A stretch of 64,000 nt of DNA, from contig QPGO01000005.1 of the NCBI GenBank assembly GCA_008632985.1, positions 765,607 to 829,606 of the forward strand. Direction: 5' to 3'. The notes below the pieces were generated by a model. That model was not told where the DNA came from and made no database searches. It saw only the letters and a list, made by a program, of their open reading frames with translations. This document shows, in pieces, positions 6,901 through 31,630 of this stretch (position 1 is the stretch's first letter; each line of letters starts with the position of its first letter). Source of the stretch: Psammoneis japonica (taxonomy: Eukaryota). The position numbers and the translations under genes were made by a program.

Positions 6901-8190
6901 GTAACGGCCTTTAACGGGAACGTCACATTTACGGATTTTGTGAGGAATCCCGTGAAGGGCTGAGCGCTTCACAAAATTGCGATTTGCGCCGGTGTCGAGT
7001 AAAGCAACACGGAACTTGTGCATTCCAGAATGAGTGTCAATCATCTGGACACGCGCTTCCGTGGTAAGATTGTCTTCTACTTCGGATTCGATGGAATCGT
7101 CTAGAAGAGACGTGACGTCTTCAAAAATGTCGTTGACATCATCTGACGCGATGCCATCGACATCGTTAGAAGCGGAGCGACCAGCTTTGGAGTCCACATC
7201 ATTGTTTTCGACGTTCCGTGTGCGGCTCCGTGTAGGATGGCGGTGTGTCGGCTCGTTTCGAGAGTTATTTTGTTGATTCGGCGCATTCCGATTTGCGCGG
7301 TTCCGCTCATAATTTTCACGTTCACGACGGATGACATTGCACTCTTGACCGTTCGGATGTACAACGCCATGGATTGGACATGTTTGTCCACGATTGTTTT
7401 GGTTCCTGTTCCTGGCATCGCGATTTTGGTCGTCATTCTGGCCGCGACGCGTATTTCGACCGTTGTTGCGTTGACTCCGATTGTTGTTGCGTCTGTTGTT
7501 GTCGGTGGACCCTTTGTCACCACGTTGTTCCATGCGTCGGAGAGTCTCGTAGCATTGAGCTTGGTCGTTCAAGTTTAAGTTGCGAAGACGGGCTTTAGTC
7601 TGAGTTTCGGCCCATGATCTTGGTCCACATTTTCGAAGGATCATGGACAATTCCGCTTCCGTGAATGACGGAACTCTTTCGGCGTCATCTTCGGATGGCG
7701 CAGGCATGATGTTAATCAACTTGTTAAAGCAACGGATGTCATTGACAAATGACTTGACAGTTTGGTTCCTGGGTTTCTTAAGGCTTTGAAGCCATTCCTT
7801 GGTGTCAAGGGCAATTTCTCCATCCATGCATTGGAGTAGAAATTCTTCACGACAAGTGTCGAATGTAACTTGGTCGCGGTTTTCGCATTCGTTTACAATG
7901 ATTTCCCAGTCGTCTTTTGGTGTTCCGGTCATAAGTCTGGTCACGAGCCGGAAACGTGGCTGTCCTTCAGCCGCACCGAGATCGTCGACAAGTTCATCGA
8001 AGTTTGACCAGAAGGTAAGAACATCTTCCGGTTCAGTTGAAGCTAACTTGCGCACCTCGATCGCAGTTTTAAGCCCATCTGGATCGTCAGGATCAATGGG
8101 GCTTTCAAAAGACACGAATTGGTCTTTGCGTTGCTCTTCCTCAGAGCGGTCAGGATGCTTAAGTTCGAATGGGCAGTTTTCTGCTGACAT
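3967..8190 (-). pseudogene. Gag-Pol polyprotein, open (1407 aa) but probably inactive
   Basis: Gag CPIH-x-H-x-C knuckle, protease LLDTGA, RT (PWGAP, DLRKLN, LDLNRGCCH, RLPQG, CIDN in place of YIDD), RNase H (DASD, FTDHKNL) and integrase (HHCC, DLFG, DNGSEF, VER). Conserved Tyr residues are replaced by Cys/His and a catalytic RT Asp is Asn. Confidence 0.93.
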
Positions 8191-8263
8191 GTCTGGTCAG
8201 GACAATGTGATCGGCAGATGTGTCTCAAGAGAGATGAACAAATGTTTGGGAGTGAATTTGCCA

Positions 8264-8554
8264 TGCCAAGTGGCGCCAAGTGACAGTGTAAAGCAGCGTT
8301 GTAAAGTTGACTGTTGCTGACATTGTGAGAAGAAATGAAAGAGATTCGGCTGCTCCGAAATCTCGCAGAATTAATGCTGAGAAACCGCGCAGAAATGTAA
8401 AGAAACAATCTTTCGAGAGGCATCGAGATGCATCGAGAAAGGAGAAGAGGTTTCTAGAAAGTGTCATCGTTGACATCCTTTTGACACTTTTGACACCAGG
8501 CTGACATCCACGAATGAACACACGAATGAATGTAGATGACCGTGACACTCGGCA
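8264..8554 (-). repeat. 5' LTR of element 1
   Basis: Direct repeat of 3655-3945. Followed on the minus strand by TGGCAAATTCAC, a PBS-like sequence starting TGG (tRNA not identified). Confidence 0.96.
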
Positions 8555-8806
8555 GTGTTGTGTCATGACCGTTGCTAAATTTCTCAATCACTGTCATTTT
8601 GTGTAACTTGGTGGAATTAACACCATGATTTCGTATGTAGAAGATTGGTGGGAACTCGGCACTTTCAAAATTGTTGCTGATTCCTTCGCACACTTTACGG
8701 CAACCATGCAAAACGCAAAAAAACTGCCGCCGAGCGACGGACGAGCTCCGGAATTTCGAAATTCTTCATCTTCCATTCTGCATCCTGATCCTCGCCGAAC
8801 GATGAG

Positions 8807-11800
8807 ATGAGCGAGTCATCAAATGACAACCACAACAACGAAGGGCTGGACCGCTGCACTCCTGTGATTGATTGTCAGCGTCAATTGTTTCTGTGTGACA
8901 AATCCACAACAAAAACAAGCAAGCGTGTGGTTCGCGGTGAGCACGCAAAAGGATCCGGCGGAGCAATCTGTCGTCACAGTTCTCACTTGGGTTGGAAGGG
9001 GAAAGAATTGAAAACGAAGACAAGAGCAGTGGCTGGTGCCGCATCAACAACGTCCTTGTTCCAGAAGCTCCGCGACGACGTCAGCCGTTCCTGGGAGACG
9101 CAAGGTCACCCGTCCAAGCAAGTGGTGGATTTGGTTGTGTCTGTTGCCAATTCTTCAACTTCTGCTGCAGCCCAAAAGGCATGCCACATGCCCTTGTTGA
9201 AGGACAAACATCCTCGCGCAACCCCCGTTCAGAGCCCCCCACAAAGAAATCTGTCAAGTGGTTCAAGTCTCGGCAGTGCCAATTCTCTCTGTTTCCTGCT
9301 GTCAGTTGATTTCCAAGTGATGGAAGCCTTGGCCAAAGTGCCAAGGATCTGCCTGGGAGTGAGTCAGATCATGCCTCACATCTGTTTCCCAGCACAGGCA
9401 CCAGGCATGAAGCCACACTGAACACCATGGTCGACATGTGCATGGGGCTGAATCTTGGTCGACTCGCGCATCATGAGAGCATCCACAAAACTCACCCCGA
9501 GATCGTAGAGACCTTCGAGTTTGTCAAAGACATTGACAACCTTGAAGAATTCTCTGTTGGAGGAGCAGATGAGGATGGCAATGCCACTTGTGTCATTGCT
9601 GTCATTGTGTGCAAGACTCCTTTCAAAGTGAGTGGTCAAAATGTGTTGGTGTCATTTGGGCTGGCCAAGTCCGCAGCTGCCAATGCAATTTTGGGTTTGC
9701 CTTTTCTTTGGGCCACCAACAGCACTCTTTTCATGCATTGTGAGTCTGAAGAAACTTTGTTGTGCCAAAGGTCAGGTCACACCTTCCCAGCACACTGTCA
9801 GGTCCCACATCGAGCGGACCAAGCACCCTTGACAGGCGGCATGGGGTCTCAAGCGGCTCATGCGTTGTCACCGTTGGATGCAACGTGGAAACCCATTTCC
9901 GATGCTGCAGAGCGCCCCCAAGCCGAAGTCAAGGTCTCCATGGCGCCAGAAGCTAAGCAGCAGCTCAACATCAACCAAGGATGCATTGTTTTCAATGATT
10001 TGTTGGAATTCTTCATGTCTGCCCAGTGTGAAGATCCTGGCATTCCAAACCCCGAACACAATTTCATTCCTAAAGTTGAACAAGACGAATGAGAGTTGCT
10101 TTCTAGCCCAACCTTGGAGTCATCATTTTGCTTGTCAAGTCCTTGTGTGAGCATTGTGCTGGCGTTTCAAGGTCTCTTGTGGCGTCAAGCCAGTCTATGT
10201 GCATTCTTGATCGACTCTGCAAGAACATGTTGCGAGCCCTCTGTGTCATCTGTGTCTTCTACATTCAAGCCTTTATTTCCATCTAAACCGTCTCCAAGTT
10301 TACAAGGTGCTGTTTGCACCTCAAAGAAAATTTGGTGCCCGAAGCTCCCGTCGCATCATGTCAAACCCGACAATTGTCCAGATCCATTAGATGGCATGGA
10401 GGTCATCTTTAAAGAACACGGCTGTTCCCCAAGGAAGTCAGTTGCAGCTCTTCAGCCTCGCGATGATGTGTCATCCAATGGAACCCCAAGCCATGTCAAG
10501 CCGAGTTCAATCAAAACATCCGGTGGTTGGACTGTCCCGAAATTCACAAGCCAAGAATCACAGAAACAATCCACAAGCATTGGGATGCATTCTGTGAGGA
10601 AGGGCTGCAAAAACATGTTCGTGGTTTCTCATGTCGAGTTGACACAGGAGATGTTGTCCCGACATCTTGCAAACCACCCCGTTGTGGTCCGCACAAATCC
10701 AAGATCATGATGAAGCCACTCGACCATCTCAAAAACAACGGTTTGATTTCTCGCAATGATGAAAGTCCTTGGGGAGCTCTCATTGTCCCAGCAGCAAAGC
10801 CTTGCCAAGAAACAACACCCTGGCACCAGCACATTTGGTGCCTCTGTGCATCTTGCCGTTGACTGAACCAAGTGACTCGACCTTTCAACTTTCCAATTCC
10901 TTGTTGCGATGATGCCACACAAGATGTCCCGCCACAGGCAAAACATTTTCTCAGCTTCAACCTTGACTGCGGGCATTGGCAAGTGCAGTTGAAAAAGGCT
11001 TCACAAGCTGAGACAGTGTTCTTCACACCAGAAGGCAAGAGTCATTGGAACGTCATGCCAGTGGGGATCCTCAATGCGCGTGCTGTCTTCATGGCAATGA
11101 TGGCAGCTCTTCGAAAAGAGTGGAACCATGCATTTTTCAGACAGCATCCCGACTCAGACGAGAATGACGTTGGCACTCATGTTGTGGTCTGACCATGTGG
11201 TTCTGAGGTCATCGTCGACGATGTCATGTGTCATGCCACCTTGACTGATTTGTTGTTTCAACATTTTGAAGAAGTCCTTCAAATTCTTCTTCATCATTGC
11301 ATCACCATAAAACTCAAGAAGTGCAAGTGGTTGTCTCCATTCATGGAATTTGTTGGGGTTGACGTCCACCGTGACGGAAATTCTCTGGCCCATTCTAAAT
11401 TGGATGCATTCTGCACTCTCCCACCACCCGAGACATGGGGAGACTTGTGCATGTTGATTGGCACCTTTGGTTTTTGTCAAAGTTGGATTGAACGGTTTGA
11501 GGCAAGATTGATTCCGTTCAGACGCCTTCAAGTCCAACAACCGCAACCAGATGCTGTGGATCTAGAAGCAGAACAAGCCTTCTTTGCCAGATTCTGGCTC
11601 CCCGAACATCAAGAATTGTTTGACCAGCTGAAGCAAGACATTTTGTCGGGTTTGGTTTTGGTGCGCCCGGGCTGCAACCGTCAGTTCTACGTTGAGACCA
11701 ACTGGAGCAAAGATGTTGTTGGAGCTGCCCTGCTTCAAGCTGATCCCAATGATCTCACAGCCAAAGAAGCTGAACTCACTGAAGTCCAGGGTGGTCCATG

Positions 11801-14302
11801 CTTTTTCGATTTGCAATGTTTCTCGACGTGTGGTCTCCCGGTGATGTCCCTGACCAAGAAGGCAACACGAAGTTCCTCACACACCTGGACTGCATCACTT
11901 CTTTTGCTGTGGCAGATTTTTTGTCTTCCACAGTCAATTCGGAGTCCGTCGGCCAAGTTGTCATGAGCAAGTTTTCATCGTGTGTGGCCTGTCATGGCTG
12001 ACTGTTGTCGATGCTGACTTGCTGTTTGCTGGAGTGTTCAAACGTCTGTTTCAACTGCTGCGAGTGCTGGTCAAACCCGTGTCACGCGAAAACCACCGTG
12101 CTGTCCGCAACGAGCATTTTCACTGCTGTCTCCACAAGACAGAGAGAATCAACTTGGCAGATGCAAGTCAGTTGACACTTTGGAAGCTCGGCGTTCTTTT
12201 CACTGTGTGTGCATGGAACGTGTCTCCTGTTGACACTGCTGACATCCCAAGGTTGCCAGCAGCTGTTGGACGTGAGTTTCCTTTTCCTTTGGACATTCAA
12301 GCTCAACCGATTCATGACTCAGCCTCAGTGCCACAACATGCTCTCAAGCATTTTGAATTGACTGCTCCATTGCTGTTCAAGCAGCATGAGTTGTTGAACA
12401 CATTGAATGATGAGCGGCGTCACAGGCACATTGAACTAAAAAATGAATGCCGAGCATGCCGCGAGTTCAATCCAGGAGATGTGGTGTGTGTACGAAAACA
12501 AGTCAAGTCGGACAAGTCACAAGACATCTCCGCCAAGCTGTCATTTTGCACTGAGGGTCCATGCAGAGTGCTTGAAAAGGTCTCCCCTGTTTCTTGCAAG
12601 ATGCAAAAGCTGCCCTTTGTCCAAGGATTGGGTCGCCCCAGACGGTTTCACAAAGAGAATGTCACGCGAATGATGCTGTTGCCATCCACAATGATTTTTC
12701 ATAAGACAGCTGACGGTGCTGACACTCGTTTTTTGCATTTCCACTCTGAGATGGCCGGTTCTCCTTTAGAAAAGTGGCTGGGAAATGTCCCACGCGGTGG
12801 CTGCTCCAAGGCCGATGCAGGAGAAGACTTTGCATTTGAACCTTTGCAAAGCATTTGGTCCGACAAGCCTCCAGTTGAAACCAATTCCTCGGGTTCAGAC
12901 TCTCAAAATCAAGCCCAAGAGTTGGAGACAGTTGACGACCCAGACAGTGACTCAGACGAGGAAGGCTCTGCAACCAACGCAGCGCCTCTCCCTGCTCTGG
13001 TCCCCGGCACAGTTCATCCAAGAACCAAGCAGTTTTTTGCCAAGTTGCACAAGTCCATGTCCAACTCGACTGCCAAGATGTTTTTTGTTGCCTGTCATCC
13101 CCAAGCTCAAGTGACTCCCATGCTCGGCACAGGCACAAGCAGATTGGCCCGAGTCCAATCATTGTCACGCTGCTGCTCAAGGTGTGTGTGACGTGCGTTG
13201 GTGGGTGCAGCAGCACTCAGATCAGAGTTCAAGGTCGTCAGTTAACAGCAGGTTCTGGCTGGACGTTCACAAGATCTGCACCAATGGTCGAGACCCAGAG
13301 CCTTTCCCAGTTAGACCTCAGAAAGTGGATGAAATTTTAGCAGCAAATGACACTCTCGTTTGGCCATCTGCCCCTTTCCCTTTGGCTGAGCATTTCGTGG
13401 TGGGACCATTTGATTTGTGCAAGGCGCATGTGGGACTTCAAGTCCCAAAGCGTCAGGCAGTCTCTGAAGCCTGCCACATTGACAATGTTCATTGGACGAG
13501 GCTCGAACAAGAAGCCCCAAAATTTTGACTCGACGCATCGCATGTTCGACACACCCCGGATTTGTTGCCGGATCGGCAAATGCATTCAGTGCATTGCATT
13601 CATTTTCTTTTCAGTCCAACATTTTGCACTCCATTCCAAGTGTCAGTTTAGGCACTTTGTATCCAGTCTATGACCAAGGAGTTATCGGCTCAGGAGTTGA
13701 TGCCCCAAGTTCGAGCTCTGACAGCTGGAATTGTCTGCCAGGCGTGAGACGAGAGTTTGACTCATCCAAGCCATCGCGGGACTCTAGATCCCTTGCACAC
13801 TGGTTTGATTCCGACGCCATATGAGGGCTAGTGGAAAACGGTTGCAAGGATCCGGTGCTCTGTACAACGTAGCGTGGATGTGTCTGGTGTGGGGGTGTGC
13901 GGTGAGTGCGACGCCCTTCGAATGCGCGAAGTTTCAGACTCCATGCGTTGTGGAACCCTGAGGCATCTGATGTGGCTCTGCTAGTTATGACAGAGGTGAA
14001 GACCATGTGACAGGATAGCCCTAAAAAATTTTCTTGTCAAGAACATGGGAGGACGCAATCTGTCCTCTAACTTTTGTGCTGTGAGAGCCTGCTCTTTGGA
14101 AAGGGGGGTGTCGACAGCGTCCGTCAGTAGTCCGTGAGGACATGCGAAGCGAACTGAGTCGAGTTGATCGTGGATACGACGACGTGACACTCATCGTGTT
14201 CTCGCACAATCACAATCACTCGACATCAGTCTGGTGACAATCTTCCTTGTGTGCGGTACTACTCGTTTTCTTTATAACACAACGTTGTGGTTTTGACTGA
14301 CA
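8807..14302 (+). mobile_element. Older degenerate Ty3/Gypsy-like retrotransposon (different family)
   Basis: Frameshifted pol fragments: RT ('PWGALIV', 'LNQVTRPFNFPIP', 'NLDCGHWQV', 'WNVMPVG', 'VIVDDV'), RNase H ('FYVETNWSKDVVGAALLQA') and an integrase-like ORF at 11980-13191. PPT-like GGAAAGGGGGG at 14098-14108 precedes a putative TGTC...GACA LTR at 14109-14302. No matching 5' LTR was found and the left boundary is uncertain. Confidence 0.8.
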
Positions 14303-16616: not shown

Positions 16617-18148
16617 CTACACATCAGCTACCGCAGTCGGCGTTGTAAAAACAAACCCTATCCCTGTCAACGCATCCAGTCGCTCTTGAGTCATGGCCGA
16701 CGGCTGTCCTTTTTGCATCAAGTCATAGGCACGTCGCTGTTGGGTGCAAAATCGATGCAACAACAAGTTGCTATTAGGATCCACGTTGCAATGCCCGTGG
16801 ACATTCTTGTAAACAACAAGATCGTTGAATCGATCGTTCCAAGAATCTGCATCGCTGCTGTCCTTGGCCGCGTTTCTACCGACCCATGGGAACGAAATGG
16901 CATCTAACTTTGCGATGCGTTCAGCCGTCAAGGGCGAGGTCTTTCCTTCGCAACGCGACTTGTACTGAGATCGCTGTAAGGCAACCCAGCGGTACAAGCC
17001 TGGACTGGCTTCGTATTTCTTGGGAACGTTGAAATGCCCATGAAGCTCCTTGAAAACTACCAAAGCATCGTAAAGAGTGTGCCATTTGACACCACTCGAC
17101 GGCGTGTTAACCCAAGAGAATCCCAGGTCCTCCAGAAGCTGGATCCGATCCACCGTGAGTTGACTCGCTTCGCCATTCTGAAACTGGCGATAACTCTTGC
17201 GCTGGTTTGCAATCCAGGTTGGCAAGTACTGGCGAGGCTGGTAGTTGGAAGGTACGTTGCAATGTCCATGTTCCTCATAGAACCGGATCAGCTCTCCGTA
17301 AAAATCTCTCCAAGTCGCTTCGAAAGGATCCCAACAAAAGTCAAGGCTGTCGAGTGCTGCCTTACGTTGCCACTTGATCTTGTCTCGCTTATGCCGTTGA
17401 GCCTTGACCCAATTCAGGAGTGCCTGAATGGACGCAATCATATTATGTGTAAGATTCTGCAATCCGCAACGTAATTTTCATAATCAAAATTTTCACATAC
17501 CTGATAATCCTCGTTATCCTTGTAAAGCTCGTTGCCTCCCCGCGAAAAGAGGATATCGCCGTGCTCTTCCTTCCATGCCTTGAGTTTCGCAAACATATCG
17601 TTCCAATCATCCTTTTCCTTCAGCTCGGCTTGAACCACGAGCGACTTGGCAATGTTGGTTGCCTCTTGCGCCGTGCGGTGCTTTGTCTCGGCCAACACCA
17701 ATTGCTCCTGAACTTCTGCTAAGCGACGTTTGACTTGACTTACCAGAAGCAAGGATGCGTTTTCTTCCTTCTTACAAGCATCCATATGCGCATAAGCCTC
17801 CGTCACTTCCTCACTCCTGGGTGTCTTTGCAGGAAGAGATCGTGGCTTCCGCTTGGCTGGCTGAGCTCCTCCGAAGTATGCGCTTTTAGGACACGAGACG
17901 TGGTGCCCCTTTTTGTACGAGGGACCCCTTTCGCACCGCTTGCACTTGCCATCAGCCGTCAAACCACCACCTTGACTATCGGGCTTGCGTTTGATACCCG
18001 CCGTAGCTTCTCCTGCTCCTTCATCACTCGCTTCTGGGGCTGCTACGGCGGCACTCGTAGCCTCCATACTATCATCGTCAGGTTGCTCTTCCTCTTCATT
18101 TGGCAAAGTCACCTCTGCCGGTGTCATTGCGGGGTTACCATCCATCAT
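16617..18148 (-). CDS. Helicase-associated (HA) repeat domain protein, 2 exons
   Basis: Exons 18148-17501 and 17423-16617 with a phase-0 GT-AG intron at 17500-17424. Four repeats of the type W..(F/Y)..L..(F/Y)...HG.(CNVP)...L..W...QR...R...L..(L/I)GF.W. Confidence 0.9.
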
Positions 18149-18499
18149 GTCAAAGATTCTATCTCAGTCGTTGCTTGTGGGGAGCCTGCAGCGGGGGGAG
18201 TTGGGGGGATGCGGTCGTTGCGTCTTTGTCTTCGTCGCGTCGTGTCAGCGATGAGAGTGGGGTGCGAATTTTTCACAGTTCGCGTAGAAACTTTACGAAA
18301 ATATGCCTTGAATGAAGTGTCACCGAAAAAATCAACTACAGTGCCGACATCATGACGTTTTCTTGTTAAAGAGCTCGAAATCTACTTAACCTTCTACTTT
18401 TACTTGTACCTTCTTATCATTTGTAAAGAAACGAGCTCCTTGTGCAAGAAAATCTGTTATGGGTTATGGCCACTCAGCCAATGCGCGATGTAGAACCTG

Positions 18500-19226
18500 T
18501 GAAGAACAGGTTCATCGAAGACCCCCAACACTGCCATCAGTCGTCTGCAGCTGGTGTGTTGGCAGGCCATGCCAATGTGTCCTTTCACTCTGGAGATGGG
18601 AGAGCTTGAAGTCTCGCTCTCTTTTCTGACCAGGCACGAGGTGATGAAGAAACTTGGCTCCAACCACACACAGCTGCACCAGACTGGCCTCGCAGTGCTC
18701 AGCCACAGCTCTCACAGTGCTCCGTGGGTTCCACCAGAGTTCACCAACATTCTCAGTCTGCAGATGTCTTTGTTGGTTGCATCATCATGTGCTTTCACTC
18801 TTTGGAGTTGTGAGCCCCAGCTCTGTGATGGGCCAATCGACGGGCGTTGCAGCACTCAACCACATTTCTCAAAGTGTTCCCTGGGCTCCACAAGAGACCA
18901 TCATCATTGCCCTCATCCTGCAGTTGTTGCACTGATTGACTGCACATCAGGGTGTCCTTTCCCACTGAAATGTGGGAATTTCAATTCTGGCTGTGACACA
19001 GTGAAACAACTGCTGGCTGCTGCTGCTGCTGCACAAAATGAGTGCAACACTCAACCACATTTCTCAAAGTGTTTTTTCCCTCCCTGGAAGAGACCTCAAA
19101 GTCTCTCAGCCTGCAGTTGTTGGGTTGGTTGGTTGCCCCACATTGTCCCATCCCACATCACTCTAGAGTCAGGAATTTCAGCTCACTCTGGCATGGACAA
19201 AATGACTTGGGGGTGCAATTGCAGCC
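18500..19226. repeat. Left portion of the TpA-depleted repeat block interrupted by element 2
   Basis: Contains diverged copies of the ~190-bp unit seen at 22834-26130 ('ttctcaaagtgttccctggg', 'ctgcagttgttgggttggttggttgc'). Almost no TpA. Confidence 0.7.
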
Positions 19227-19593
19227 TGCACTATGCTCGAAGAACGAGTGTAAACGAAAGTAGAATAGTGTGCGAAAAGTGGAAATTATAAGATTAAATT
19301 TTGCTCTGTGATTTTTGGTTTCTCCGAACGAGTTCTCAATGGCCTAAAGCTTCTGTACTGCTTCTACAGACAAAAGGCCTTTCGGAGAATATATTCGTGA
19401 CAACAGATTGTCCGGATACGATTGCTATTGACACGTAAGATGTCAACATCGTCAATCGATCGTATTTGCAATTCTCGACATCCGATCAACTCTGTGTGAT
19501 CGTTCTGTCCTTTGTACGCATCCACGACTGTGGTACGATTGACATATAAATAATATATAATCATAAATATGTATATAACAGTCGCATACTGCA
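19227..19593 (-). repeat. 3' LTR of element 2 (TpA intact)
   Basis: Direct repeat of 22463-22829, about 30 TpA sites. Confidence 0.96.
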
Positions 19594-22462
19594 TTCGCCT
19601 CCCTAATTGCACATTAGAGTCATTTGTTAAGTGGATTATTCGACGGATATTGACAGTGTCAATAATGTCTCCACGTTCACTGTATTGTGCCATTAGTAAT
19701 GACTGTTGTCGTTTTGTATAGGCCATGTGGGGCCGTTCCAATTTCCGAATGTCTTATGAGAGTGACATCGTTTGTTTCTCACTTTATATATATGTATATA
19801 TAGTATTACGTCGAGTATTCTCGTTGACGTTCTTTGTTGATATGAACACAAGGACCAATTGTCCTGCAGTGTTTTTCATGATATCGATTGTACATAGCAT
19901 TTTGCCCAGTACTCGATGTACGCCCTTAATTGGCGTTCACTTACTCTTACTTGTGGATTTCGTGTAGTTTGGCGGGCTTACTTCATATGCCATATTGCTC
20001 TGCTGCACTACCACGTTTCTTAAGTAGTAATTAACGATGGTCAAGGATATGACCATTTCGTCTTGATATATTCAATCCTGTGATGGTTATGAATTCCATT
20101 ATGGATTTTTGTGTACTTCAACCATCTATCAGTTGGATTTTAATCGTTATTTGGACGTTTCTTTTTGACATACCGGTGTTATTTTGTCATTCCGAAGGCA
20201 CTGCTTTCGTGCACTATGGGGATAATGTCCATTTTTGTGTTTTGTTTCTGAATCTTTGGCACATCTCGTGTGACGTTATTTTGTCTTGCCTCGTACATCG
20301 TACATTACAATCGTACGGGTGCTGTGAGATTGTCTTTTTTGCCAATGTGAAGTAGGTACGTATAATGTACGTATACCAATCTGTCACAGATTTTTTTTCT
20401 TAACCGTCTTTAAATAAGGCGATTTTTTCTTTATGACATGAGCATTTTTGATCTCGCTCGCCTCCACGAAAAGTGTTCGTATGATATGTCGCGTCCGACA
20501 ATTTGGAGGGAATGTCTTTATCCCGTTTTAACGGTAGGACATTGTCGTAGGATTCAATTTTCTATAGTAAGTCGGCTGATCGCGTCTATCGCGACGATGT
20601 TCGCCTTGCCCTCGTTGTATTCTAATTCGGGACTGAAGTTGTCAACGTATGACTTTGTCCGTTGTGTCTTATGATCAGTATATGTATAAATCTGTTGGCC
20701 AAACAGTATATTTCGGAATTTTATAAGTGTTTTCACTATGGACAGAAGTTCTTTTTTCCGTTGTAACGTATAATATTGAAATACGTGTATGATAACAATA
20801 TAGTTTTTGATTTGATACGCTCCATATTTTCGGAGACTTTTCGTTCCGTACTTGTACTTTTGCCGTTTGACCTTTATTGAGGTGAATTTGGCTAGTATTG
20901 TACAGGAGATCGTTGAGACTACATGTCTCGATAATAGTAACGTATGACAACGAGATGTCGTAGTGTTCTTTACGTTTTTCTCGTGTTGCGATTGCTTGAA
21001 TCGCCTCCATTTTCTTTGCAATCGATTGCATATCGTTACGCATGGAAGTCTTGATAGTTTATTTCAAGTTAAACAGTGAAGGACTTTTGTTGTTAACCTT
21101 CTAAGCAACTGTTCTAGTCGTTTGAATGCCGTATTAAGCTGTACTTGTACAGGTGATATTTTGAAGTTACTTTTGTCAGGCACAAACGATCACATGTGGT
21201 CGTTCTGACAACTTCAAACCTGTTATGAGTTCACTCAAGTGTTGTATAAAAATATCTGGGGCTCTATAGATTCTCATTGGAAGTCCATAGTGCTCATTTT
21301 CTCCCCACGGCATGATTTTCGTGTGAGCACGACGTGTGCTTTTTTTATTTGACATGGTGGCATTCCATGTTTGAATCAAATAGATTACATATATGAAACG
21401 TTCTTGCTTCAATAGTATTTCCTGAACATTGGGTAAAGGACACACCACCTGTATGAACCTCATGCTAAGCTTCTGAGTGTCGGACACGGTCGAACTCGAC
21501 CTGTTTTCTTTAGACAATGAGTCTCAGAGCGACTTGTTCAGAGCAACTTCATTCTTAAGACTTCAATCTTTCATAATAGGTCAAACTCCTTTTGATTGGA
21601 CGCCTCCAAAGACTATGATAGGGGAAGGTTCTCACGCGTCGTGGAATCGCGTCAGATTTTCCACGATGAGATCCACTGATGCTTCCCATGCATTCGTCTG
21701 AGGAACTTTTCAAAACGATTTCAACCTCTTAAGAAGAAGATTGAGTTGGTTGTGTTCATTTGGGTTAGATGCATCGCCGTAGTTGTCACTTGATTAAGAT
21801 CGATGGCGTGATGATGTGAGTCGAGGACCATTGGTTCCGTCATTAACTCTATTCACGGCGTCACATTTTTCAATGTGATCGGTTTTCAGCTTGAAAACAT
21901 CGGCATCGAAGAGTGTATGAACATTCTTCATAAGGTAATTGCTTCTTCCCATTAGATTTCTTCATTTGCGTAGTCCAACATGACTTGCAGGACTGGACAT
22001 TAAGTCGCGTCCCATGATCGTGTCATTTGAACCTGAAGAAAATTTGGTGTTTTCAACATGCACTGTTTGCATGTCAGCATGCCTTAAATTTCGCATGGTG
22101 AGAACTGAATTCGGTGTTTGCTGTCAGTCGTAAAGAGCTCACCCTTGGTTTCCCAAGTTTTTGGTGGCGGATTCTTGTGTTCTCAACTTTCGCACGAATT
22201 TGCGCAAAATTGTGGTTGACGATGTTCCGTTGTCGATAGGAACACGTAGATGCTTTTTTTTTTTTGCTTTTCTCAGAGAAGTGATCATGTGGACAGCGAG
22301 AGTGGGACTCGCATAACATGCTGTGATGCTTTTTATGGGTTTCCAGACATCCTGCAACGCGTCATGCTCCTTGAGCGGCACAAATTTTTGATCGGACTCG
22401 ATTGGGTCAATTTTTTTAAATTGACAGTTTTGTTCGTTAAGCGTTTTAGAGTCTTGACACAA

Positions 22463-22829
22463 TGCACTGTGCTCGAAGAACGAGTGCAAACAAAAGTAGA
22501 ACAGTGTGCGAAAAGTGGAAATTATGAGATTAAATTTTGCTCTGTGATTTTTGGTTTCTCCGAACGAGTTCTCAATGGCCTGAAGCTTCTGCACTGCTTC
22601 TACAGACAAAAGGCCTTTCGGAGAATGTGTTCGTGACAACAGATTGTCCGGGTGCGATTGCCATTGACACGTAAGATGTCAACATCGTCAATCGATCGTA
22701 TTTGCAATTCTCGACATCCGATCAACTCTGTGTGATCGTTCTGTCCTTTGCACGCATCCACGACTGTGGTGCGATTGACATGCAAATAACACACAATCAC
22801 AAATGTGCATGTGACAGTCGCATGCTGCA
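22463..22829 (-). repeat. 5' LTR of element 2 (TpA converted)
   Basis: Direct repeat of 19227-19593, only about 7 TpA sites left. Confidence 0.96.
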
Positions 22830-22833
22830 AGCC

Positions 22834-25800
22834 AACGAGCCATGCAGCTCTCAAGCGCTGCTCTCATGTTGCTCTCCAGACAACCCTGGGGACCGATGCC
22901 CTCAAACTGCATTTTTTGTTTGGTTGGTTGGTTGCACCAGTGTGTGTCCTTTCTCTCTGCAGCAGTTGGAATTTCAGGTCTCACTCTGGCATGCACTGAG
23001 CGAGTGGGGGCTGCATCTGGACCCCACATGTTTGTCGTTGTTGCACCACTCTGCCACCAACCTCAGCGTGTTCCCTGTGCTTGAACCAAGATCTTCAACA
23101 CTCTGAGTTTGCAGTTGTTTTGCTGGTTTGTTGCACAAGGGTGTCCTTTCACTCTGGAGTCAGGAGTTTCAGTTCTCAATCTGGCATGGATGAAAGTGAC
23201 AGGTGGCTGCAACTGCGCCAGATGAGCCTTCTTGCAGCACTCCATCACCATTCTCAAAGAATTGCCTGGGTTCCTTTGAAGACCTTCAGTGCCATCAGCA
23301 TGCAATTGTTGGGTTGGTTGGTTGGTTGCATCTGAGTGTTCTTTCTCTTGGGTGTCAGGAGTTTTTCTGCTTTCACTCTGGCATGCATTCAGTGCCTGGT
23401 GGCTGCAAATGCACAAGATGGGCTGTGCAACACTCCACCGCTGTTGTCAAAGTGTTCCATGGGATCCTCTAAAAACCTTCAATGCCCTCATCAGCACGCA
23501 GTTGTTGGGTTTGTTGCTTGCATCAGGGTGTTCTTTTGCTGTGGATTCAGGAGTTTCTGTTCTCACCACGTCATGGACCAAGTGCCTGATGGTTGAAACT
23601 GCACCAGATGGGCATTGCAACACTCCACCACCACTCTCAGAGTGTTCCTTGGGTTCCTCTGGATGCATTCAATGCCCTCAGCATGCAGTTGTTGGCTTGG
23701 TTGTTTGCATCAGGGTGCTCTTTCACTGTGGATTTGGGAGTTTCTGCTCTCACCATGTCATGGATTAAGTGTCTGGTGGCTGCAACTGCACCAGATGGGC
23801 ATTGTGGCACTCTCTGCCACTGTTCTTAAAGTGTTCCCTGGGTTTCTCTGGACACATTCAATGCCCTCAGCATGCAGCCATTGGCTTGGTTGTTTGCATC
23901 AGCGTGTTCCTCGCTGTGGATTTGGGAGTTTCTGCTCTCACCATGTCATGGATCAAGTGTCTGGTGGCTGCAACCGCACCAGACGGGCATTGTGACACTC
24001 CAACACTGTTCTTAAAGTGTTCCCTGGGTCCTTGGAAGACCTTCAATGCCCTCAGCATGCAGCTGTTGGGTTGGTCATTTGTGCCAGGGTGCCATTTCTC
24101 TCAGGAGTCATCAGGAGTTTTTCTCTGCTCTCACTCTGGCATGCACTGAGTGGCTGGCGGCTGCAACTGCACCAGATGGGCCTTGCACTCCTCCACCACC
24201 ACTCTCAAAGTGTTCCCTGGGTGCTTTGAAGAACTTCAAAGCCCTCAGCATGCAGTTGCTGATTTGGTTGTTTGCATCAGGGAGTTCTTTCACTGTGGAT
24301 TCAGGAGATTCTTTCTGCTCTCATCATGTCATGGATTGAGTGACTGGGGGCTGCACCCACACCAGATGAGCCCTTCAACACTCCACCGGCACTGTTGTCA
24401 AAGTGTTCCCTGCATCACTCTAAAGACCTTCAGCACCCTCAGCATGCAGTTGTTGCGCAGTTTGTTTGAATTGGGGTGTTCATTCACTGTGGATTCTGGA
24501 GTTTCTGCTCTCCTCACCATGTCATGGGTTGAGTGCCTGATGATTGCAACTGCACCAGATGGTCGTTGCAACACTCCACCACCACTCTCAAATCATTCCA
24601 TGGGATTCTCTGGACACATTCAATGCCTGGACACATTCAATGCCCTCAGCATGCAGTTGTTGGCTTGGTTGTTTGCATCAGGGTGTTCCTTCGCTGTGGA
24701 TTTGGGAGTTTCTGCTCTCACCATGTCATGGACTGAGTGCCTGGCGGCTGCAACCGCACCAGATGGGCATTGTGACACTCCGCCACTGTTCTTGAAGTGT
24801 TCCCTGGGGCCCTTGGAAGACCTTCAATGCCCTCAGCATGCAGTTGTTGGCTTGGTTGTTTGCACCAGGGTGCCATTTCTCTCAGGAGTCATCAGGAGTT
24901 TTTCTCTGGTGCTCTCACTCTGGCATGCATTGAGTGACTGGCAGCTGCAACTGCACCAGATGGGCCTTGCAACACTCCACCATCATTGTTGAAGTGTTTC
25001 CCGGGTGCCTCCAAATGACTTCAATGCCCTCAGCATGCAATTGCTGGCTTGGTTGTTTGCTTCTGGGTGTTCTTTCACTGTGGATTTTGGAGATTCTGCT
25101 CTGACCATGTCATGGATCAAGTGACCGGTGGTTGCAACTGCACCAGATGGGCCTTGCAACACTCCACCATCACTCTTGAAGTTTTTCCTGGGTGCCTCCA
25201 AATGACTTCAATGCCCTCAGCATGCAATTGTTGGCTTGGTTGTTTGCTTCTGGGTGTTCTTTTGCTGTGGATTTGGGTCATGGATTGAGTGACTGGTGGC
25301 TGCAACTGCGCCAGATGGGCATTCTGACACTCCAACATTTTTCTCAAAGTGTTCCATGGGTTCCTCCAAAGACCTTCAATGCCCTCAGCAAGCAGTTTGG
25401 GACATTTGATTGCATCAGGGTGTTCTTTCACTGTGGAGTTGGGGGGGTTCAGCTCTCACCATGGAATGGATTGAGTGACTGGGGGGTTCACTCTGGCATG
25501 CATTTAGTGCCTGGTGGCTGCAAATGCACAAGATGGGCCTTGCAACCTTCCACCACTGTTCTCAAAGTGTTTTCTTGGACTGTCCAAAGACCTTCAGTGC
25601 CCTCAGTCTGCAGTTGTTGGGTTGATTGTTTGCACCAGTGTGTTCTTTCTTTGATGAGTCAGGAGCTTTCTGCTCAAACTGCGGCATGCATTGAGTGCAG
25701 CCTGGTGGCTGCAACTGCACCAGGCAGGCCTTGCAACACTCCACCACCCTTCTCAAAGTGTTTCCTGGGTGCCTTCACAGAACTTCAATGCCCTTTAGCA

Positions 25801-26130
25801 TGCTGTTGTTGGGATGGTTGGTTGCATCAGGGTGTTCTTTCACTGTGAAGTTGTTGGGGGTCTCAGCTCTCACCACTCTCACCATGGCATGGATTGAGTG
25901 ACTGGGGAGTGCAGGTGCACCAGATGAGCCCTTCAACACCCACCCCTCATTCTCAAAAGGGAGACCTTCAATGCTCTCAGCTTGCAGTTGGTTGGTTGGT
26001 TGGTTTGGTTGTGTTGGGGTGCTCTTTTGCTGGTGGCTTTGTCTTGTGCAGCTGCACTGGGCAAGTCTTGCCACTCTCAATCACTGTTCTTGAGTGTTCC
26101 CTGGCTTTCCATTGGGATCTTCAATGCCCT
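22834..26130. repeat. Diverged tandem array, ~190-bp unit, about 17 copies
   Basis: Recurrent 'ggctgcaactgcaccagatggg', 'ccttcaatgccctcagcatgcagttgttgg' and 'gcatcagggtgttctttcactgtggatt' at roughly 170-205 bp spacing. TpA and CpG are both nearly absent. Confidence 0.9.
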
Positions 26131-29100
26131 CAGAGAGAACATTGGCACAAACAGACAAAGATGCTTGTGTTCTTTCTGTTTTTCCCCTGTGGCATGAACA
26201 CATGATCATCCCATGCACACCAGTGTAGAAACCAGCGCAGATTCTGCGTGCAGTTTTTGTTGGGGGTTGTTTTGACCGGCGATGTGTCACTTGGCTTCTT
26301 TTGTTTTTCCTGCTGAGGGAGTCCTCCAAAAGAGACAATGGACAACCAAGAAAGCCACAACACAGCTTGTTGACAAACAGCACTGCAATGATGCAGTGAG
26401 ATCCCAAGATCTGCACTTTTGTTCAATTCCAACATTCATCTGCAGCAGTCCTCCAGAGCAAATGACACAACATGCACCACACTGCAGCGCACTGCACACA
26501 AGGACTGGCAGGTGTAGCAGAGAGAGAGAGAGAGAGAGAGAGAGAATGCTGTGCACAATGTGGCCATTGGTTTGTTGTGACATGCCATTGGCCGTTGCTT
26601 TGCTTGGTTGATTGTTGCATTGGTTTGGTGTGCTTTCAACTTTCAGACACCCCTCAAAACTCAGAAACAAATGCTTGCAGGACTGGCGACTCTTTGGCAG
26701 GATGAAAAAAAAAACAGAAAGCCAGGCACCAGCAGAGTGCTGTTTTCTCCCAAAAGATTTTGAGGTGGGTCACAGCAATCACAGAGGTTTGCATTTCTTC
26801 AGCTGGGGGCAAGCACAAGCATCTTTGTTCTGCTGCTGCAGTTGTTGACAACTCCAACACTGTGCAGGGATGTGACCCAAAAGTGTGCACCCTGCTGAGC
26901 AAGTGCTTTTTAAGAGCTTGCAAAGTCAGGCAACATTTTTTTGCACAACTTTGTGTTCCATCTCTCATGTGGAAGAATGAGAACATCCGGGACACCAACA
27001 ACAATCTAGTTGTTGCACTGTCAGCAAGAATTTTTGAACTGCAACCAGGTGATTTCTCTGTTTGATCCAAGACTGTGCCAATTTGTCAAATCTACATTCG
27101 TGAAATGTTCAACAACAAACATGTTCATTCCTGGGTTCAACAATTTTTCTCCACCACATGGACAAGACCACAGTGCTGCAGTTTTTGTTCATGTCAAGTC
27201 CTGAATGAAGTGCACCCACTTTCCTGGATCCAATTCTCTGCTGCAGCCATGCATCAAGTTTGAAATTCTTCTTTGCTCCAAATTTTTTGCTCCCTGTCCA
27301 TGCCATTCTTTTTTTGTGCGATGACCCCTTGCACTGCTCTTCTTCATGGTGGTGTTTTTGGCCCTGCTCTTCACCAAGTGAGTGCTGCACCATGTGATTG
27401 ATGTTTGCTTTCATTGCATTTTCCCCAATGTTTTTCTCCAACAACACACTTCATTGGCGGTGCAGTCTGATGGCCTTGTTTGTCCCTGGTGCAAATGTTC
27501 TCAGGGTTCAGCTCTAAGTGTGGTCTCAGCCAGCATGCTGCCACCAACTGCCTCTTTTTCATTGGTCCAACCAACTCTTTTGGTTGTCTGCATGGTTTTG
27601 ACTCTGAAAACCAGGTGAAGCATCACCTTTCTCATCACTGCACTGCTTCTGCTGCTCTCCTTTGCCAGGAGCACAGTCTTGCTGCTCACTGGATGCTGCC
27701 TCTGTTGCCTCTCTTGGGTCTCCAATGCCAACAGACCCAAATGTCCCCATTGCCAAGTTCCCTTTTCCAACATTTCCCTGCATCTTCAGAAGCATGCACC
27801 CTGCCGTGAGAAGGAGGAAGCATCCCTTTGATGCTCTGCTGCTGTTTGGGACCAAATGCCATCAACTCATTTTCCCCGCAGACAATGACACATTTGGCAA
27901 GACAATGACAACCACCCAACGCTTGGTTTTGCCAACGACAAGCCCCACAAGCCCCTCCTTCCTGAAGTCCATTTGAATCCAGATCCACCTCCTCCCATGC
28001 ACTCCAACAAGAGCCCTTCTCCTGTTGGCTCCCCCTCCACTGGAAACCACCTGCACCCCCCCTGTTGAATGCTCTGGTTGCTTGTGTGCTGCTGTGAATG
28101 CCCAGCAACTCATCTTGTTTGCCAACGATGGTGTGTCTGCCCTCAGAGAGGACAGTCCTGTGGATGTTCTTGAGTTCATTGCAGCTGATTCTCTTGATGA
28201 TGCTTTGGGCCCTCCCTTGATGTCACATCCAGCAGAAGATGCAGCTCCTCCTGCTCCTTTCTGCACTCTTGACCGGGTTGCAGTTTCCTTGACAGCCTTG
28301 GCAAAAAAATTGAAACTCGCTGTCCCTCCATGTGACTCCACACACCACCACTGGCAACTCATGACAGCCAAATGTTGATGCTTGATTGCTGGCATGTGTT
28401 GGTGCAAAGGGAGTGTGCACTCCAGCAATTGCTGCAGCTCACTGCTGCCATGTCTGTGTGACAACAGCACAGCATTTCACCTTTGGATGAGAGCAGAGAA
28501 TGTGCAAATTTGTGGACAAGCGGGTTGTTGAATGTGCACAGACATCCATTGTTAAAATGTGGAGCTGTTCTGTTTGGGCAATGGCTGCAGCAGTTGGAGA
28601 GGGAAGGCATCAGAAAAGAACAGGGAATGGCTGATTTAGTTGTGAACAAACAAAGAAGAGAGAACAGTCAACTCGGTTGTGAACAAACAATTGCAGGGCA
28701 AGGAGCAAATTTAAAACCATGGGAATCTGCGGTTGTGTGTCAGAAAAGAGTGGGGAATGGCCAACACAGTCATGAGTGACAAATTGCAGGGCAACAAGAA
28801 AATTTTAAAACTGTGCAAATCTGTGGTTGTGCATGTGAATCACTTGCAATGGAGCACAATTCAAAACAGTGGAAGGTTTTGAAAAATTCAAATGTTGAGT
28901 TAGAAACATGCACTCAAAATGATGCAAGCACCTGTTCAAGTCAATCTGCTGGGAGAAGCAAGCAATGGCAAAACAGAGAAGATCACTTGCAAAGTGCACT
29001 CGTTTTGCAATTTCTTGTGTCACAAACCAGATGGAGTGCAGCAAATGGTGCAACACAAGAGTCACCTGTTGGAGTGGGAAAGAAGATGGGAGGAAATGGT

Positions 29101-29854
29101 TGTGTCACAGGAGTGACAAAGCAAGATGGTGGGAGCATGACATCATGCAGCAAGTTGGGTTGAGGAGGGCAGGACAAAGAACATCAGATGCACCAACAAG
29201 TTGGAGTTGGCTGCTTTGGCATGCTTTGCAGCTGCCATGAGTCCTGTGGTGGTGGGGTTGTTTGATGTGCAAACAAGCAAGTGTGTGGGAAATTGAGCCA
29301 ACTCCAGTGTCAGCAGGCAGGGACTCAAGTTCTGTTGTGACTCCCATGGAGGGATGTCATGCAATGGATTGAGCTCCAGCAGCTGGCAAGAAATTGACAG
29401 GGTCCATGTTGATGGAGGTGGTCAATGAAAGTGTGTGGCCACATTGCAAACTCACAATCTTCAACAGAGTGCTTGCGGTGGGAGGAGAGCACATGAAAAT
29501 GGTTCTGCAGGAGTTGAGGAGCATGGCATCTGTGCCAGAGGCATTCTGGGATGCATGCAAAGAGGCACTCAGGGAAAAACTCAATGAAGGCAAACTTGTC
29601 CAAGGAGGCACACAGAAGAAGCACAAGAGAGAGAGAGGATGAATGGTCTGCACCAACGGGAGAGGACCTGCCCTTGCAGCCAGTGGCTGCCAGCAATGGC
29701 ACAGAAACAGCTGCAGCCATGGCAACAAACCAAGCTGGTGTGTGAATGTAAAATGCAGCAAATGGCAAAATCTGGAACATGGCAAAAACAAAGAGGCAAG
29801 GTGCAAGGCAATGGACTGTGGAGATTTGAAAAAATGGTCGCACTCGGCCTGTCC
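26130..29854. mobile_element. Unclassified, heavily mutated repeat/transposon relic
   Basis: Near absence of TpA and CpG, no intact gene. Ends in a ~36-45 bp sequence that recurs inverted at 31631-31675. Confidence 0.5.
26519..26545. repeat. (AG)13 microsatellite
   Basis: Perfect AG dinucleotide run. Confidence 0.95.
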
Positions 29855-30169
29855 TTCCATGCGTTCACAAAACTTGTGTAGGATTCTACGTACGTAATAT
29901 TACGTGGGGCGATACTGAAATGGCAGTCGCACCAATCAGGCCTCATTCAAATATGCGTGAGGCCAACGCAAAGCAAACGGCACTTTCACGATGATGATGA
30001 TGCGGCGGCGGCGTCTTCAGTACGTTCCCGTAGCCATACCACAGTATATGCTTCTAGATGTGACAATGTGTTGGAAAGTTTGAAAGAGATCTGTCTCATT
30101 GGTGGCGTCTCTGACGGTGTTGTTTTCAACATAAATTTATGGACTGGACTATATATTATGGCAGGGCTG

Positions 30170-31370
30170 AATGTGGTAGCACTGGCGGCGGCAGGAGCCT
30201 TTTACTGCTTTTGCACTGGGGGTGGCTGGAGCCTGTGTACTACTGTCCTTTTTATCTGGTGGCGGTTGGTACCCCTGTATGATGCTGGTGCTGGTGGTGG
30301 TTGGAGCTTTTTTGCTGCTAGCCAGTGGTTGCAGTGGGAGCCTGTATATCGCTACCACTGTAGCACTGGTGGCGGTGGGATCCTGTGTACTACTGGTACT
30401 GGAGGCGGTTGGAGCCTTTTGCTGCTAGAACTGGCGGCAGTAGTAGCCTGTGTGCTGCTGCACTGGTGGCGGTGTGAGCCTGTATCCGGCGGTTGGAGCC
30501 TGTGTACTGGTAACCATCGAGGCGTTTGGAGCCTTATTATGTGATGTCGGTGGGTGCCCCTGTATGCTGTTGGGACTGGTGGTGGTTGGAGCTTTTTTGA
30601 TACTAGCCAGTGGTTGCAGTGGGAGCCTGTATATCAAGGCTAGCACTGGTGGCGGTGTGATCCTGTATACTGCTGGCACTGGAGGCGGTTGGAGCCTTTT
30701 GCTACTAGCACTGGCGGCAGTAGTAGCCTGTGTGCTGCTGCTGTAGCACTGGTGGCGGTGTGAGCCTGTATCCTGTATATTTGCTAGCATTAGTGGCGGT
30801 TGGAGCCTGTGCACAACCATCTTTTTTATCTGGTGGCGGTTGGTACCCCCGTATGATACTGGCACTGGTGGCAGCGGGAGGCTGCATCCTGTATAGCTAC
30901 TAGCACTGGCGGCGGTTGGAGCCTGTGCACTACTATCCTTTCTATCTGGTGGCGGTGGGTGCCCCTGTATGATGCTGGCACTGGTGGTAGTGGGAGGCTG
31001 TACCCTGCACAGCTGCTAGCGCTTGCGGCGGTTGGAGCCTGTGCACCACTATCCTTTTTATCTGGTGGCGGTGGGTGCCACTAGCATTCGAGGCGGTTGG
31101 ATTCTTTTTATCTGGTGTTGATGGTGCCCCTGTATGCTGCTGGCAGTGGTGGTGATTGGAGGTGTTTTGCTGCTAGCAGTGGTGGCAGTGGGAGCCTGTG
31201 TACTACTGGCAGTGGTGGCGGTGGGAGCCTGTGTATAACTACTAGCAGTGGTGACGGTGGGCGCCTGTGTGCTAGTGGCACTGGAGGCGGTTGGAGCCTT
31301 TTGCTGCGGGTGCTGGTGGCAGTGGGAGCCTGTGTACTGCTAGCAGTGGCAGTGGTTGGAGCCCATGTAA
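30170..31370. repeat. GC-rich minisatellite, ~30-33 bp unit
   Basis: Repeated 'ggtggcggttggagcctgtgtactactagcact'-like units. The minus strand reads as broken TQAPTATSASS-like peptide repeats. Confidence 0.88.
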
Positions 31371-31630
31371 CACACCAACCGTCGGCGGCGGGATCTTGAG
31401 ATGACCGGTGACGACTCGTGGAGAGATTGCTTGGGGGTTTCAATGCAATTATGTGTTTAAAAAGCAGTGCTTTAGATTATTAACGTAGCTCTTAATGATG
31501 GTGATCTCTTGTCTATATATTCTTTTGATGATGTGGTGTAATAGTGTCTTCTTTTTAGCATCGCGGCCGATGATTCACCACACTAGCTACTTGCACCACG
31601 TCTGATTTTTCACCTCGGATGTATGGCGAC

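Follow-up and report, generated by a model that had tools for sequence, protein, structure and literature searches.

The stretch of DNA analysed here, hereafter the window, comprises 64,000 nucleotides of contig QPGO01000005.1 of Psammoneis japonica (assembly GCA_008632985.1, forward strand, positions 765,607 to 829,606). At positions 19227-22829 of the window lies a defective minus-strand copy of a Ty3/gypsy retrotransposon from a high-copy family, which we call element 2. The two long terminal repeats (LTRs) of this copy differ from each other almost only at the dinucleotide TpA, which is abundant in one LTR and scarce in the other. The element and its borders consist of the following features, for which rhoTA, rhoCG and rho(CA+TG) denote relative dinucleotide abundances.

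19223-19226, no strand: left target-site duplication AGCC (from the flank sequence; the rebuilt empty site aligns across the junction with the satellite array)
19227-19593, minus strand: 3' LTR of element 2 with TG...CA ends, read as the unmutated state (30 TpA, rhoTA 0.86)
19594-19606, minus strand: run resembling a polypurine tract directly upstream of the 3' LTR, which sets the orientation of element 2 (from the sequence)
19594-22462, minus strand: degenerate, internally deleted Ty3/gypsy interior of element 2, 2869 bp (from Pfam and tblastn)
22463-22829, minus strand: 5' LTR of element 2, read as the mutated state (7 TpA, rhoTA 0.25, rho(CA+TG) 1.61)
22830-22833, no strand: right target-site duplication AGCC (from the flank sequence)

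The LTRs are 367-bp direct repeats reading TGCA...TGCA, and the element is bordered in the order AGCC, TG...CA, AGCC, with the purine run at its 3' LTR. In LTR elements, a polypurine tract lies immediately upstream of the 3' LTR and thereby reveals the orientation of the copy; a similar purine run adjoins position 3945 in another gypsy copy of the window, element 1, which is described below. On the minus strand of the interior of element 2, Pfam detected an RT_RNaseH domain (E 6.7e-5), and tblastn recovered degraded matches to protease/reverse transcriptase (RT), RNase H and the integrase zinc finger in that order, spread over an interior with many stops, frameshifts and deletions. Since element 2 lies on the minus strand, its TA-rich left copy is the 3' LTR and its TA-poor right copy the 5' LTR. 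A first-pass annotation of this DNA had labelled the LTRs in the same way, and the minus-strand purine tract adjoining 19593 and the minus-strand Pol fragments show these labels to be correct. Element 2 sits in phase inside a 190-bp tandem satellite array that is TA-free on both sides of it, and when the flanks are joined without the element, they are collinear with the array across the junction. The possibility raised in the first-pass annotation, that the LTRs come from different insertions and that AGCC is a coincidence, is answered by these observations: because the AGCC duplication is accompanied by in-phase flanks, both LTRs derive from one insertion. The difference between them therefore arose after that insertion, unless gene conversion or misassembly intervened, and the earlier proposal of a change in the chromosome after integration is supported with the same reservation.

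The two LTRs (19227-19593 and 22463-22829) were aligned with MAFFT, and the differences were scored by a script. The alignment comprised 367 columns without a gap and contained 25 differences, all 25 of them transitions. At 23 of these positions, the left copy has TA, where the right copy has TG (12 cases) or CA (11 cases). The remaining two differences pair CG at 19256 with CA at 22492, and A at 19416 with G at 22652. The length, the lack of indels and the complete breakdown given by the hand alignment of the first-pass annotation were thereby reproduced. The 60 of 367 LTR positions that belong to TpA hold 23 of the 25 differences (binomial p = 1.7e-16; p = 3e-18 by Fisher's test of TA positions against the others). 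The left LTR contains 30 TpA and 21 CpG dinucleotides, and the right LTR contains 7 and 20, respectively. Changes were found at 23 of 30 TpA but at only 2 of 307 other positions, and correction for saturation gave an excess at TpA of about 112-fold per position, in agreement with the earlier estimate of roughly 77% changed sites, about 2 changes among some 300 other positions and a hundredfold excess. The raw LTR divergence is 6.8%, compared with 0.65% outside TpA, and the predicted tenfold inflation of LTR-divergence dating holds for this pair. The asymmetry between the LTRs is 23 to 0 (binomial p = 2.4e-7). The 12 TG and 11 CA outcomes bear out the claim that both strands were hit equally, and their order along the LTR forms 11 runs by hand count, where about 12.5 are expected.

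The asymmetry between the LTRs continues into the interior of element 2. The value of rhoTA is 0.94 at 19594-21000, 0.48 at 21001-22462 and 0.24-0.30 at 22001-22800. TpA falls off gradually over about 1.4 kb, with the switch from TA-rich to TA-poor sequence at about 21000-22000. CpG is high along the whole element, and the GC content is 0.38 in the left half as compared with 0.41-0.45. Copies of the family were taken from run X1, one of four public runs of a single sample, by matching 3940 of its contigs to positions 18500-23300, and 663 of the 3940 contigs are at least 99% like the window. The summed contig depth of the family is about 40000-46000 over the LTRs and about 2000-14000 over the interior, and single contigs have a depth of about 30-80. 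Relative to single contigs the LTR depth is about 500-fold, and relative to the interior it is about 3-4-fold, which suggests many solo LTRs. An exact 26-base word from the LTR of element 2 found no stretch in metagenome contigs.

Another retrotransposon in the window has an LTR pair with the same kind of asymmetry.

3655-8554, minus strand: element 1, a second Ty3/gypsy copy with the target-site duplication GTGTT, LTRs at 3655-3945 and 8264-8554, and a Pol frame of 1409 amino acids

Elements 1 and 2 have no DNA match with each other and belong to unrelated families. The Pol frame of element 1 contains RVT_1, RNase H and integrase domains in the complete order RT - RNase H - integrase. Its 3' LTR has 19 TpA, its 5' LTR has 6, and rhoTA of the interior is 0.22. 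The LTRs differ at 17 positions, of which 16 are transitions and one is a transversion. Twelve of the 17 are TA against TG or CA, with TA in the 3' LTR every time, and the pair has in addition two doubles of TG against CA. TpA changed at 13 of 19 sites, whereas CpG numbers 15 in both LTRs and none of it changed.

The Pol frame of element 1 also allowed the direction of the change to be examined. We aligned it with 120 homologues and defined conserved-Tyr columns as those with at least 70% Tyr. Element 1 shows Cys at 12 of the 24 conserved-Tyr columns, His at 7, Tyr at 3, Phe at 1 and Trp at 1. Of five conserved-Cys columns it has retained four, and of ten conserved-His columns eight, and Tyr stands at none of these 15. 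The Tyr content of the frame is 0.9%, compared with a homologue mean of 3.8%. The alignment shows that the Tyr codons TAY of element 1 became TGY or CAY, and that the direction is from TA to TG/CA and not the reverse. The 1409-residue open frame is no sign of function, because the change from TA to TG/CA cannot create stop codons; it yields a new TGA only from TAA. The frame (3967-8196, minus strand) has CIDN as its polymerase active-site box, at which homologues carry Tyr and Asp.

For the LTR pair of element 2, the direction from TA to TG/CA is supported indirectly, by evidence other than the family copies. The left interior has neither an excess of product nor a depletion of substrate, with rhoTA of 0.94 and rho(CA+TG) of 1.10, as compared with a rho(CA+TG) of 1.13-1.16 in genes. 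If TA was lost, LTR positions 316-357 had 10 of 11 sites converted and the rest of the LTR 13 of 19, an even rate (p = 0.21). The opposite polarity makes the rate uneven, at 10 of 14 and 13 of 59, respectively (p = 0.0008). The interval of this evenness test was picked post hoc. The terminal inverted repeat matches at 9 of 10 positions in the TA copy and at 7 of 10 in the other LTR. At position 22652, the G of the right LTR is the minority state among family contigs, with A accounting for 25528 of a depth of 30966. In the TA-rich half, the conserved Gln, Cys and His codons that carry CA or TG are intact at five well-aligned columns, 20324, 20258, 20261, 20321 and 20673. The usable Tyr columns have Tyr at 20775 and 20619, and His at 21292 in the depleted half. 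We rejected the mixed TG/CA columns of the satellite as a proof of polarity (five such columns, compared with 0-1 for other double-transition pairs), as a CpG ancestor gives the same pattern. Converted and kept TpA sites number 23 and 7 in element 2 and 13 and 6 in element 1. The TTA sites common to both LTRs of a pair (19287, 19295 and 3763) were kept in 3 of 3 cases, which may hint at a wider sequence preference, although the numbers are too small.

Beyond the two elements, the window contains long blocks of DNA that are nearly devoid of TpA.

8555-13500, no strand: TA-free block, rhoTA 0.09, with an old plus-strand gypsy remnant (RT_RNaseH_2 and SH3_Tf2-1 matches at 11193-13188)
18492-19226, no strand: left remnant of the satellite array, TA-free, 1 TpA (the array pre-dates the landing of element 2)
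22830-29850, no strand: TA-free, CpG-poor block, 19 TpA in 7021 bp, rhoTA 0.04, rhoCG 0.12
31651-37500, no strand: TA-free, CpG-poor block, 16 TpA in 5850 bp
62001-64000, no strand: TA-free block with a reverse-transcriptase remnant, running off the end of the window (RVT_1, E 5.7e-6, 63026-63958)

In these five blocks, the TpA frequency is 0.0016-0.0057, rhoTA 0.03-0.09 and rho(CA+TG) 1.56-1.85, as compared with 0.042-0.044, 0.61-0.65 and 1.13-1.16 in gene regions, where rhoCG is about 0.95. Applying the published footprint thresholds for 1-kb windows, rhoTA of at most 0.43 and rho(CA+TG) of at least 1.52 (bioRxiv 10.64898/2026.01.13.699255), 19 of 64 windows of 1 kb qualified, and they fell into four runs. 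The kilobase-scale blocks nearly free of TpA fill about 30% (about 20 kb) of the 64-kb window, and depletion of CA/TG was found in no part of it. The edges of the blocks are sharp to within tens of bases; for example, 22830-23400 contains no TpA. Retroelement domains are present in two of the four large blocks. The block at 22830-29850 consists of the 190-bp tandem array up to about 25950 and of unannotated DNA beyond. Pfam searches of 25 open reading frames (ORFs) in this block and of 21 ORFs in the block at 31651-37500 gave no clear family; matches below threshold were YABBY_N at 29360-29899 (minus strand, 24.1 bits against a cut-off of 28.6) and Cas3-like_C at 35096-35533 (minus strand). 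In the oldest blocks rhoCG is 0.12-0.58, compared with 0.99-1.56 in elements 1 and 2. Judging from these compositions, CpG loss looks like a separate, slower process that lags far behind TpA loss, and we would guess that it stems from methylation of repeats.

We consider it likely that mutation specific to TpA, changing A:T to G:C after insertion, hit the 5' end of element 2 and spared its 3' end, and that the same process, having run to saturation elsewhere, made the TA-free blocks. Element 2 would have inserted once, into a satellite array that was already without TpA. A process specific for the palindromic TpA would then have changed A:T to G:C, a hit on one strand giving TpG and a hit on the other CpA. 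It would have struck the 5' LTR, which lost 23 of its 30 TpA, together with the adjoining 1-1.5 kb, and spared the 3' LTR, which lost none, together with the neighbouring 1.4-1.8 kb. At saturation, the same process would have produced the TA-free blocks from old gypsy remnants, satellites and unidentified DNA, while sparing the genes between them. As has been proposed for Bigelowiella natans, a guided enzyme may deaminate the adenine of 5'-TA-3' in double-stranded DNA, whichever strand it lies on, and chromatin state or small RNA, not sequence alone, would direct it. Oxidation or another modification of T followed by mispairing gives the same footprint, and the two cannot be told apart. The TpA signature, its strand symmetry (12:11 in the LTR; 12 Cys and 7 His in Pol) and its regional restriction are direct observations. 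The process acts on chromosomal DNA after integration and is confined, with sharp edges, to selfish DNA, and TpA is converted faster than CpG decays, by a factor of at least tens.

Elements 1 and 2 were both spared at the 3' LTR, which also lies nearer to host genes than the 5' LTR does (at 0 bp in element 1 and about 735 bp in element 2), and the depleted end of each is the one towards a large TA-free block. About 400 bp of element 1 was spared, compared with about 1.8-2.2 kb of element 2, and as these lengths differ, the boundary does not follow the LTR junction. These positions fit a spread from a silent domain as well as one from the 5' LTR.

Several observations weigh against the TpA-specific process as described. 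Only one end of each element was hit, and both elements have the same orientation and a large TA-free block on the same side. The protein test in element 2 is thin, as the RT part is 22-26% identical to its homologues, contains frameshifts and offers three usable Tyr columns. The TG-against-CA doubles in the LTRs of element 1 could also descend from a CpG ancestor. The family copies are divided. In the comparison of family contigs, for which both LTRs were matched together with the contigs split between them, we used the best 40 of 708 rows, 24 of which lie inside the element. In five of these 24 best-supported rows, the window reads TA and the family TG/CA; the family form makes up 83-85% of the depth in four of the five and 10% at 19290. 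Two rows show the window with TG and the family with TA, four are CpG-related, and 13 are other changes. By simple majority rule the rows are ambiguous, and the TA of the window does not come out as ancestral everywhere. The four runs, whose library type is unrecorded, derive from one sample, possibly the source of the assembly itself, so they provide no independent check on the letters of the right LTR. Subfamilies descending from partly mutated master copies could explain the mixed rows. Because the mutator cannot create stop codons, such masters might have stayed active and founded subfamilies. Relative to the window, the family contigs show A>G or T>C at 341 places, G>A or C>T at 197 places, and each type of transversion at 9-30 places.

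The same family rows are among the facts that speak for the reverse polarity, in which a TA-poor element inserted and TpA then arose from CpA/TpG in its left LTR and left interior by cytosine deamination, as in repeat-induced point mutation (RIP) of fungi. The LTR differences comprise exactly the dinucleotide set of Neurospora-type RIP, the left half of element 2 is the more AT-rich one, and the four rows with CA/TG at 83-85% of the depth have TA in the window. However, no region combines product excess with substrate loss, the left interior being like genes in both respects, and the TpA excess with CpA/TpG depletion that marks a copy mutated by RIP is absent from the window. Such a process cannot make 20 kb of near-zero TpA. 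Nor does it suit element 1, in which 19 of 24 Tyr columns changed to Cys or His and none of 15 Cys or His columns to Tyr, or the left part of element 2, where the CA- and TG-bearing Gln, Cys and His codons are intact at all five aligned columns. It would also require a local hotspot (10/14 against 13/59). Furthermore, the organism is diatom-like and not a fungus. The host aminotransferase ORF at 38705-39721 (minus strand) has nine homologues that carry an organism name, and all of them are from diatoms or Triparma, namely Thalassiosira (3), Fragilariopsis, an MMETSP entry with the truncated name 'Detonu', an entry Psemu1, which we take to be Pseudo-nitzschia, and Triparma (3). Eight of the nine are 60-67% identical to the ORF, and the one from Triparma strigata is 55% identical. 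By such sequence comparison, the host genes resemble those of diatoms or bolidophytes. Taken together, we regard a RIP-like origin as very improbable.

An artefact would be either miscalling at modified TpA bases in silent chromatin or a chimeric or over-polished assembly of a multi-copy family. The family is indeed of high copy number (3940 contigs, LTR depth of about 40000-46000), all runs derive from a single sample, perhaps the one assembled, and strand-specific miscalls would be expected to split about 50:50 between TG and CA. However, the contigs of the runs contain the same TA-free repeats, including CA-to-TG doubles at 18930/18931 and 23099/23100, and 663 of 3940 contigs reach at least 99% similarity to the window. 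Miscalls would rarely amount to about 100% over 7 kb with sharp edges beside a normal gene island, and Illumina mutation-accumulation data in another alga show that this type of mutation is real. A chimera would lose the matched duplications and the in-phase flanks, although there could still be a misjoin inside element 2. On balance, an artefact seems quite improbable. It is also unlikely, in our view, that the mutator is real but that gene conversion or recombination with a family copy replaced one LTR end, the donor being either unmutated (left) or mutated (right). Potential donors number in the hundreds, family copies in both TA states are abundant at similar depth on both LTRs, and the switch from TA-rich to TA-poor sequence lies inside element 2 at about 21000-22000. 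Nevertheless, the donor must have been near-identical, since the LTRs differ at 2 of 307 positions outside TpA, and TpA drops gradually over about 1.4 kb without a step. The unrelated element 1 has an asymmetry in the same direction, which would need a second coincidence. Three further candidates were rejected. GC-biased gene conversion offers no reason for TpA specificity, selection against TA cannot act on satellites or yield a 23:0 split between LTRs, and CpG decay is at odds with the change of 1 of 21 CpG.

The closest known system to the TpA-specific process favoured here is the TpA hypermutation of B. natans, not RIP. The preprint reports for mutation-accumulation lines that 230 of 231 single-nucleotide mutations in an integrated giant-virus region and a virophage region were A>G or T>C, and that all the A>G/T>C mutations of those regions fell on TpA. 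Mutation proceeded at about 6e-7 per site per generation, some 1000 times the background, and in some lines only (bioRxiv 10.64898/2026.01.13.699255). From the figures for B. natans (211 mutations, 6169 TpA and 3132 generations) we calculate about 1.1e-5 per TpA per generation; at this rate of another species, 77% conversion would take only about 1.3e5 generations. It further describes an enrichment of TpA-depleted coding sequences for reverse-transcriptase and DDE domains, proposes an ADAT2-like adenosine deaminase as the enzyme, and cites the preference of ADAR for a 5' U (Mettrop et al., bioRxiv 10.64898/2026.01.13.699255). The two cases share A>G/T>C-type changes on TpA, on both strands, that are regional and spare host genes. 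They also share the long-term footprint, which consists of clusters of 1-kb windows depleted in TpA and enriched in CpA+TpG, and the TpA frequency of 0.0018 given for depleted coding sequences of B. natans is close to the 0.0016-0.0057 of the blocks described here. In contrast to B. natans, the host is diatom- or bolidophyte-like and not a chlorarachniophyte, and the targets are LTR retrotransposons and a satellite instead of the giant-virus and virophage inserts that the preprint reports. A term search of the preprint text returned none of the words LTR, retrotransposon and diatom (bioRxiv 10.64898/2026.01.13.699255). The depletion is much more widespread here, covering 19 of 64 windows, compared with the 124 clusters in about 95 Mb that are given for B. 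natans, and a boundary falls inside a 3.6-kb element, unlike in B. natans. The evidence here is comparative, whereas that from B. natans consists of de novo mutations. A literature search on TpA hypermutation with retrotransposons, diatoms and repeat-induced mutation returned only papers on fungal RIP and the B. natans preprint, and none on diatoms.

Like fungal RIP, the process is dinucleotide-specific, restricted to transitions, directed at repeats or selfish DNA and chromosomal, and it involves the same set of TpA, CpA and TpG. Unlike in RIP, the change is from A:T to G:C, TpA is the substrate and not the product, GC rises, no stops are created, long frames stay, and one LTR was left untouched. 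RIP usually hits both copies of a repeat. The dinucleotide context of RIP is also given in the abstract of PMC2621366. With APOBEC3/ADAR editing, the process shares a deaminase-type, context-dependent hypermutation of retroelements. Editing before integration, however, leaves identical LTRs and a bias to one strand, which is G>A for APOBEC3. Here, the LTRs differ 23 to 0 and the strands were hit 12 to 11, which points to an event on chromosomal double-stranded DNA. As in decay by methyl-CpG deamination, TpG/CpA is enriched, silenced repeats are affected, and the oldest blocks are CpG-depleted. In contrast to such decay, CpG changed at only 1 of 21 and 0 of 15 sites in the two LTR pairs, compared with 23 of 30 and 13 of 19 for TpA.

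The window suggests that the TpA-removing process first reported in 2026, for integrated viruses alone and in one chlorarachniophyte, also operates in a diatom-like genome, where it is complete over kilobases. What is new here is the different lineage, the retrotransposon and satellite targets and the comparative nature of the evidence, as well as the 23:0 asymmetry between LTRs 3.2 kb apart, the excess of about 110-fold, the use of LTR pairs as an internal clock, and the depletion at saturation over about 30% of the 64-kb window. LTR-divergence dating would be about tenfold too high for the affected copies, and homology searches for old transposons would fail systematically at Tyr and other TA-containing codons. 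The 23:0 asymmetry inside element 2 implies a sub-kilobase resolution of targeting. Such resolution argues for a guided enzyme and makes element 2 a concrete locus at which to seek the guide. We lean slightly towards a more general proposal, according to which a guided, TpA-specific 'inverse RIP' would be a saturating defence of the diatom/bolidophyte lineage that clears every TpA from retrotransposons and satellites without creating stops, and that halts within tens to hundreds of bases of host genes or inside a 3.6-kb element. If this were true, then together with Bigelowiella it would imply a DNA-editing immunity that is ancient or has evolved repeatedly across the SAR (stramenopiles, alveolates and Rhizaria) supergroup. 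Chromatin or small RNA would then guide it, and LTR pairs could be used as internal clocks to time the activity of the mutator.

The blocks at 22830-29850, 31651-37500 and 8555-13500 contain overlapping open frames of 110-445 amino acids on both strands, 67 of which were listed. Long open frames are numerous in TA-free DNA because only TGA stops remain in it. In Pfam searches at E of at most 0.01, 6 of these 67 ORFs had a match, three to retroelement domains and three at chance level. TA-free DNA with TGA as its only stop yields long spurious frames that gene callers may annotate, and gene callers probably over-predict in these blocks. Between two TA-free blocks lies an island of 1.8 kb (29851-31650) with 108 TpA, rhoTA of 1.17 and edges sharp to tens of bases. 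It contains 116-bp tandem repeats, which on the minus strand translate into a repeat protein rich in Ser, Thr, Ala and Pro, and its flanks are TA-rich. The island was either spared by the mutator or arrived later.

The other host genes recognised in the window have normal TpA.

16617-17477, minus strand: protein with three helicase-associated (HA) domains
41470-42777, plus strand, and 52881-53741, minus strand: two sulfotransferase-like ORFs
48357-49268, minus strand: P450
55213-56553, plus strand: SPX plus cytidylyltransferase fusion
58141-60417, plus strand: Metallophos plus Laminin_G_3 protein

The best database relative of the Metallophos plus Laminin_G_3 protein is only 51% identical to it, and a search for close relatives with an organism name found none. 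The genes of the window have long uninterrupted exons.

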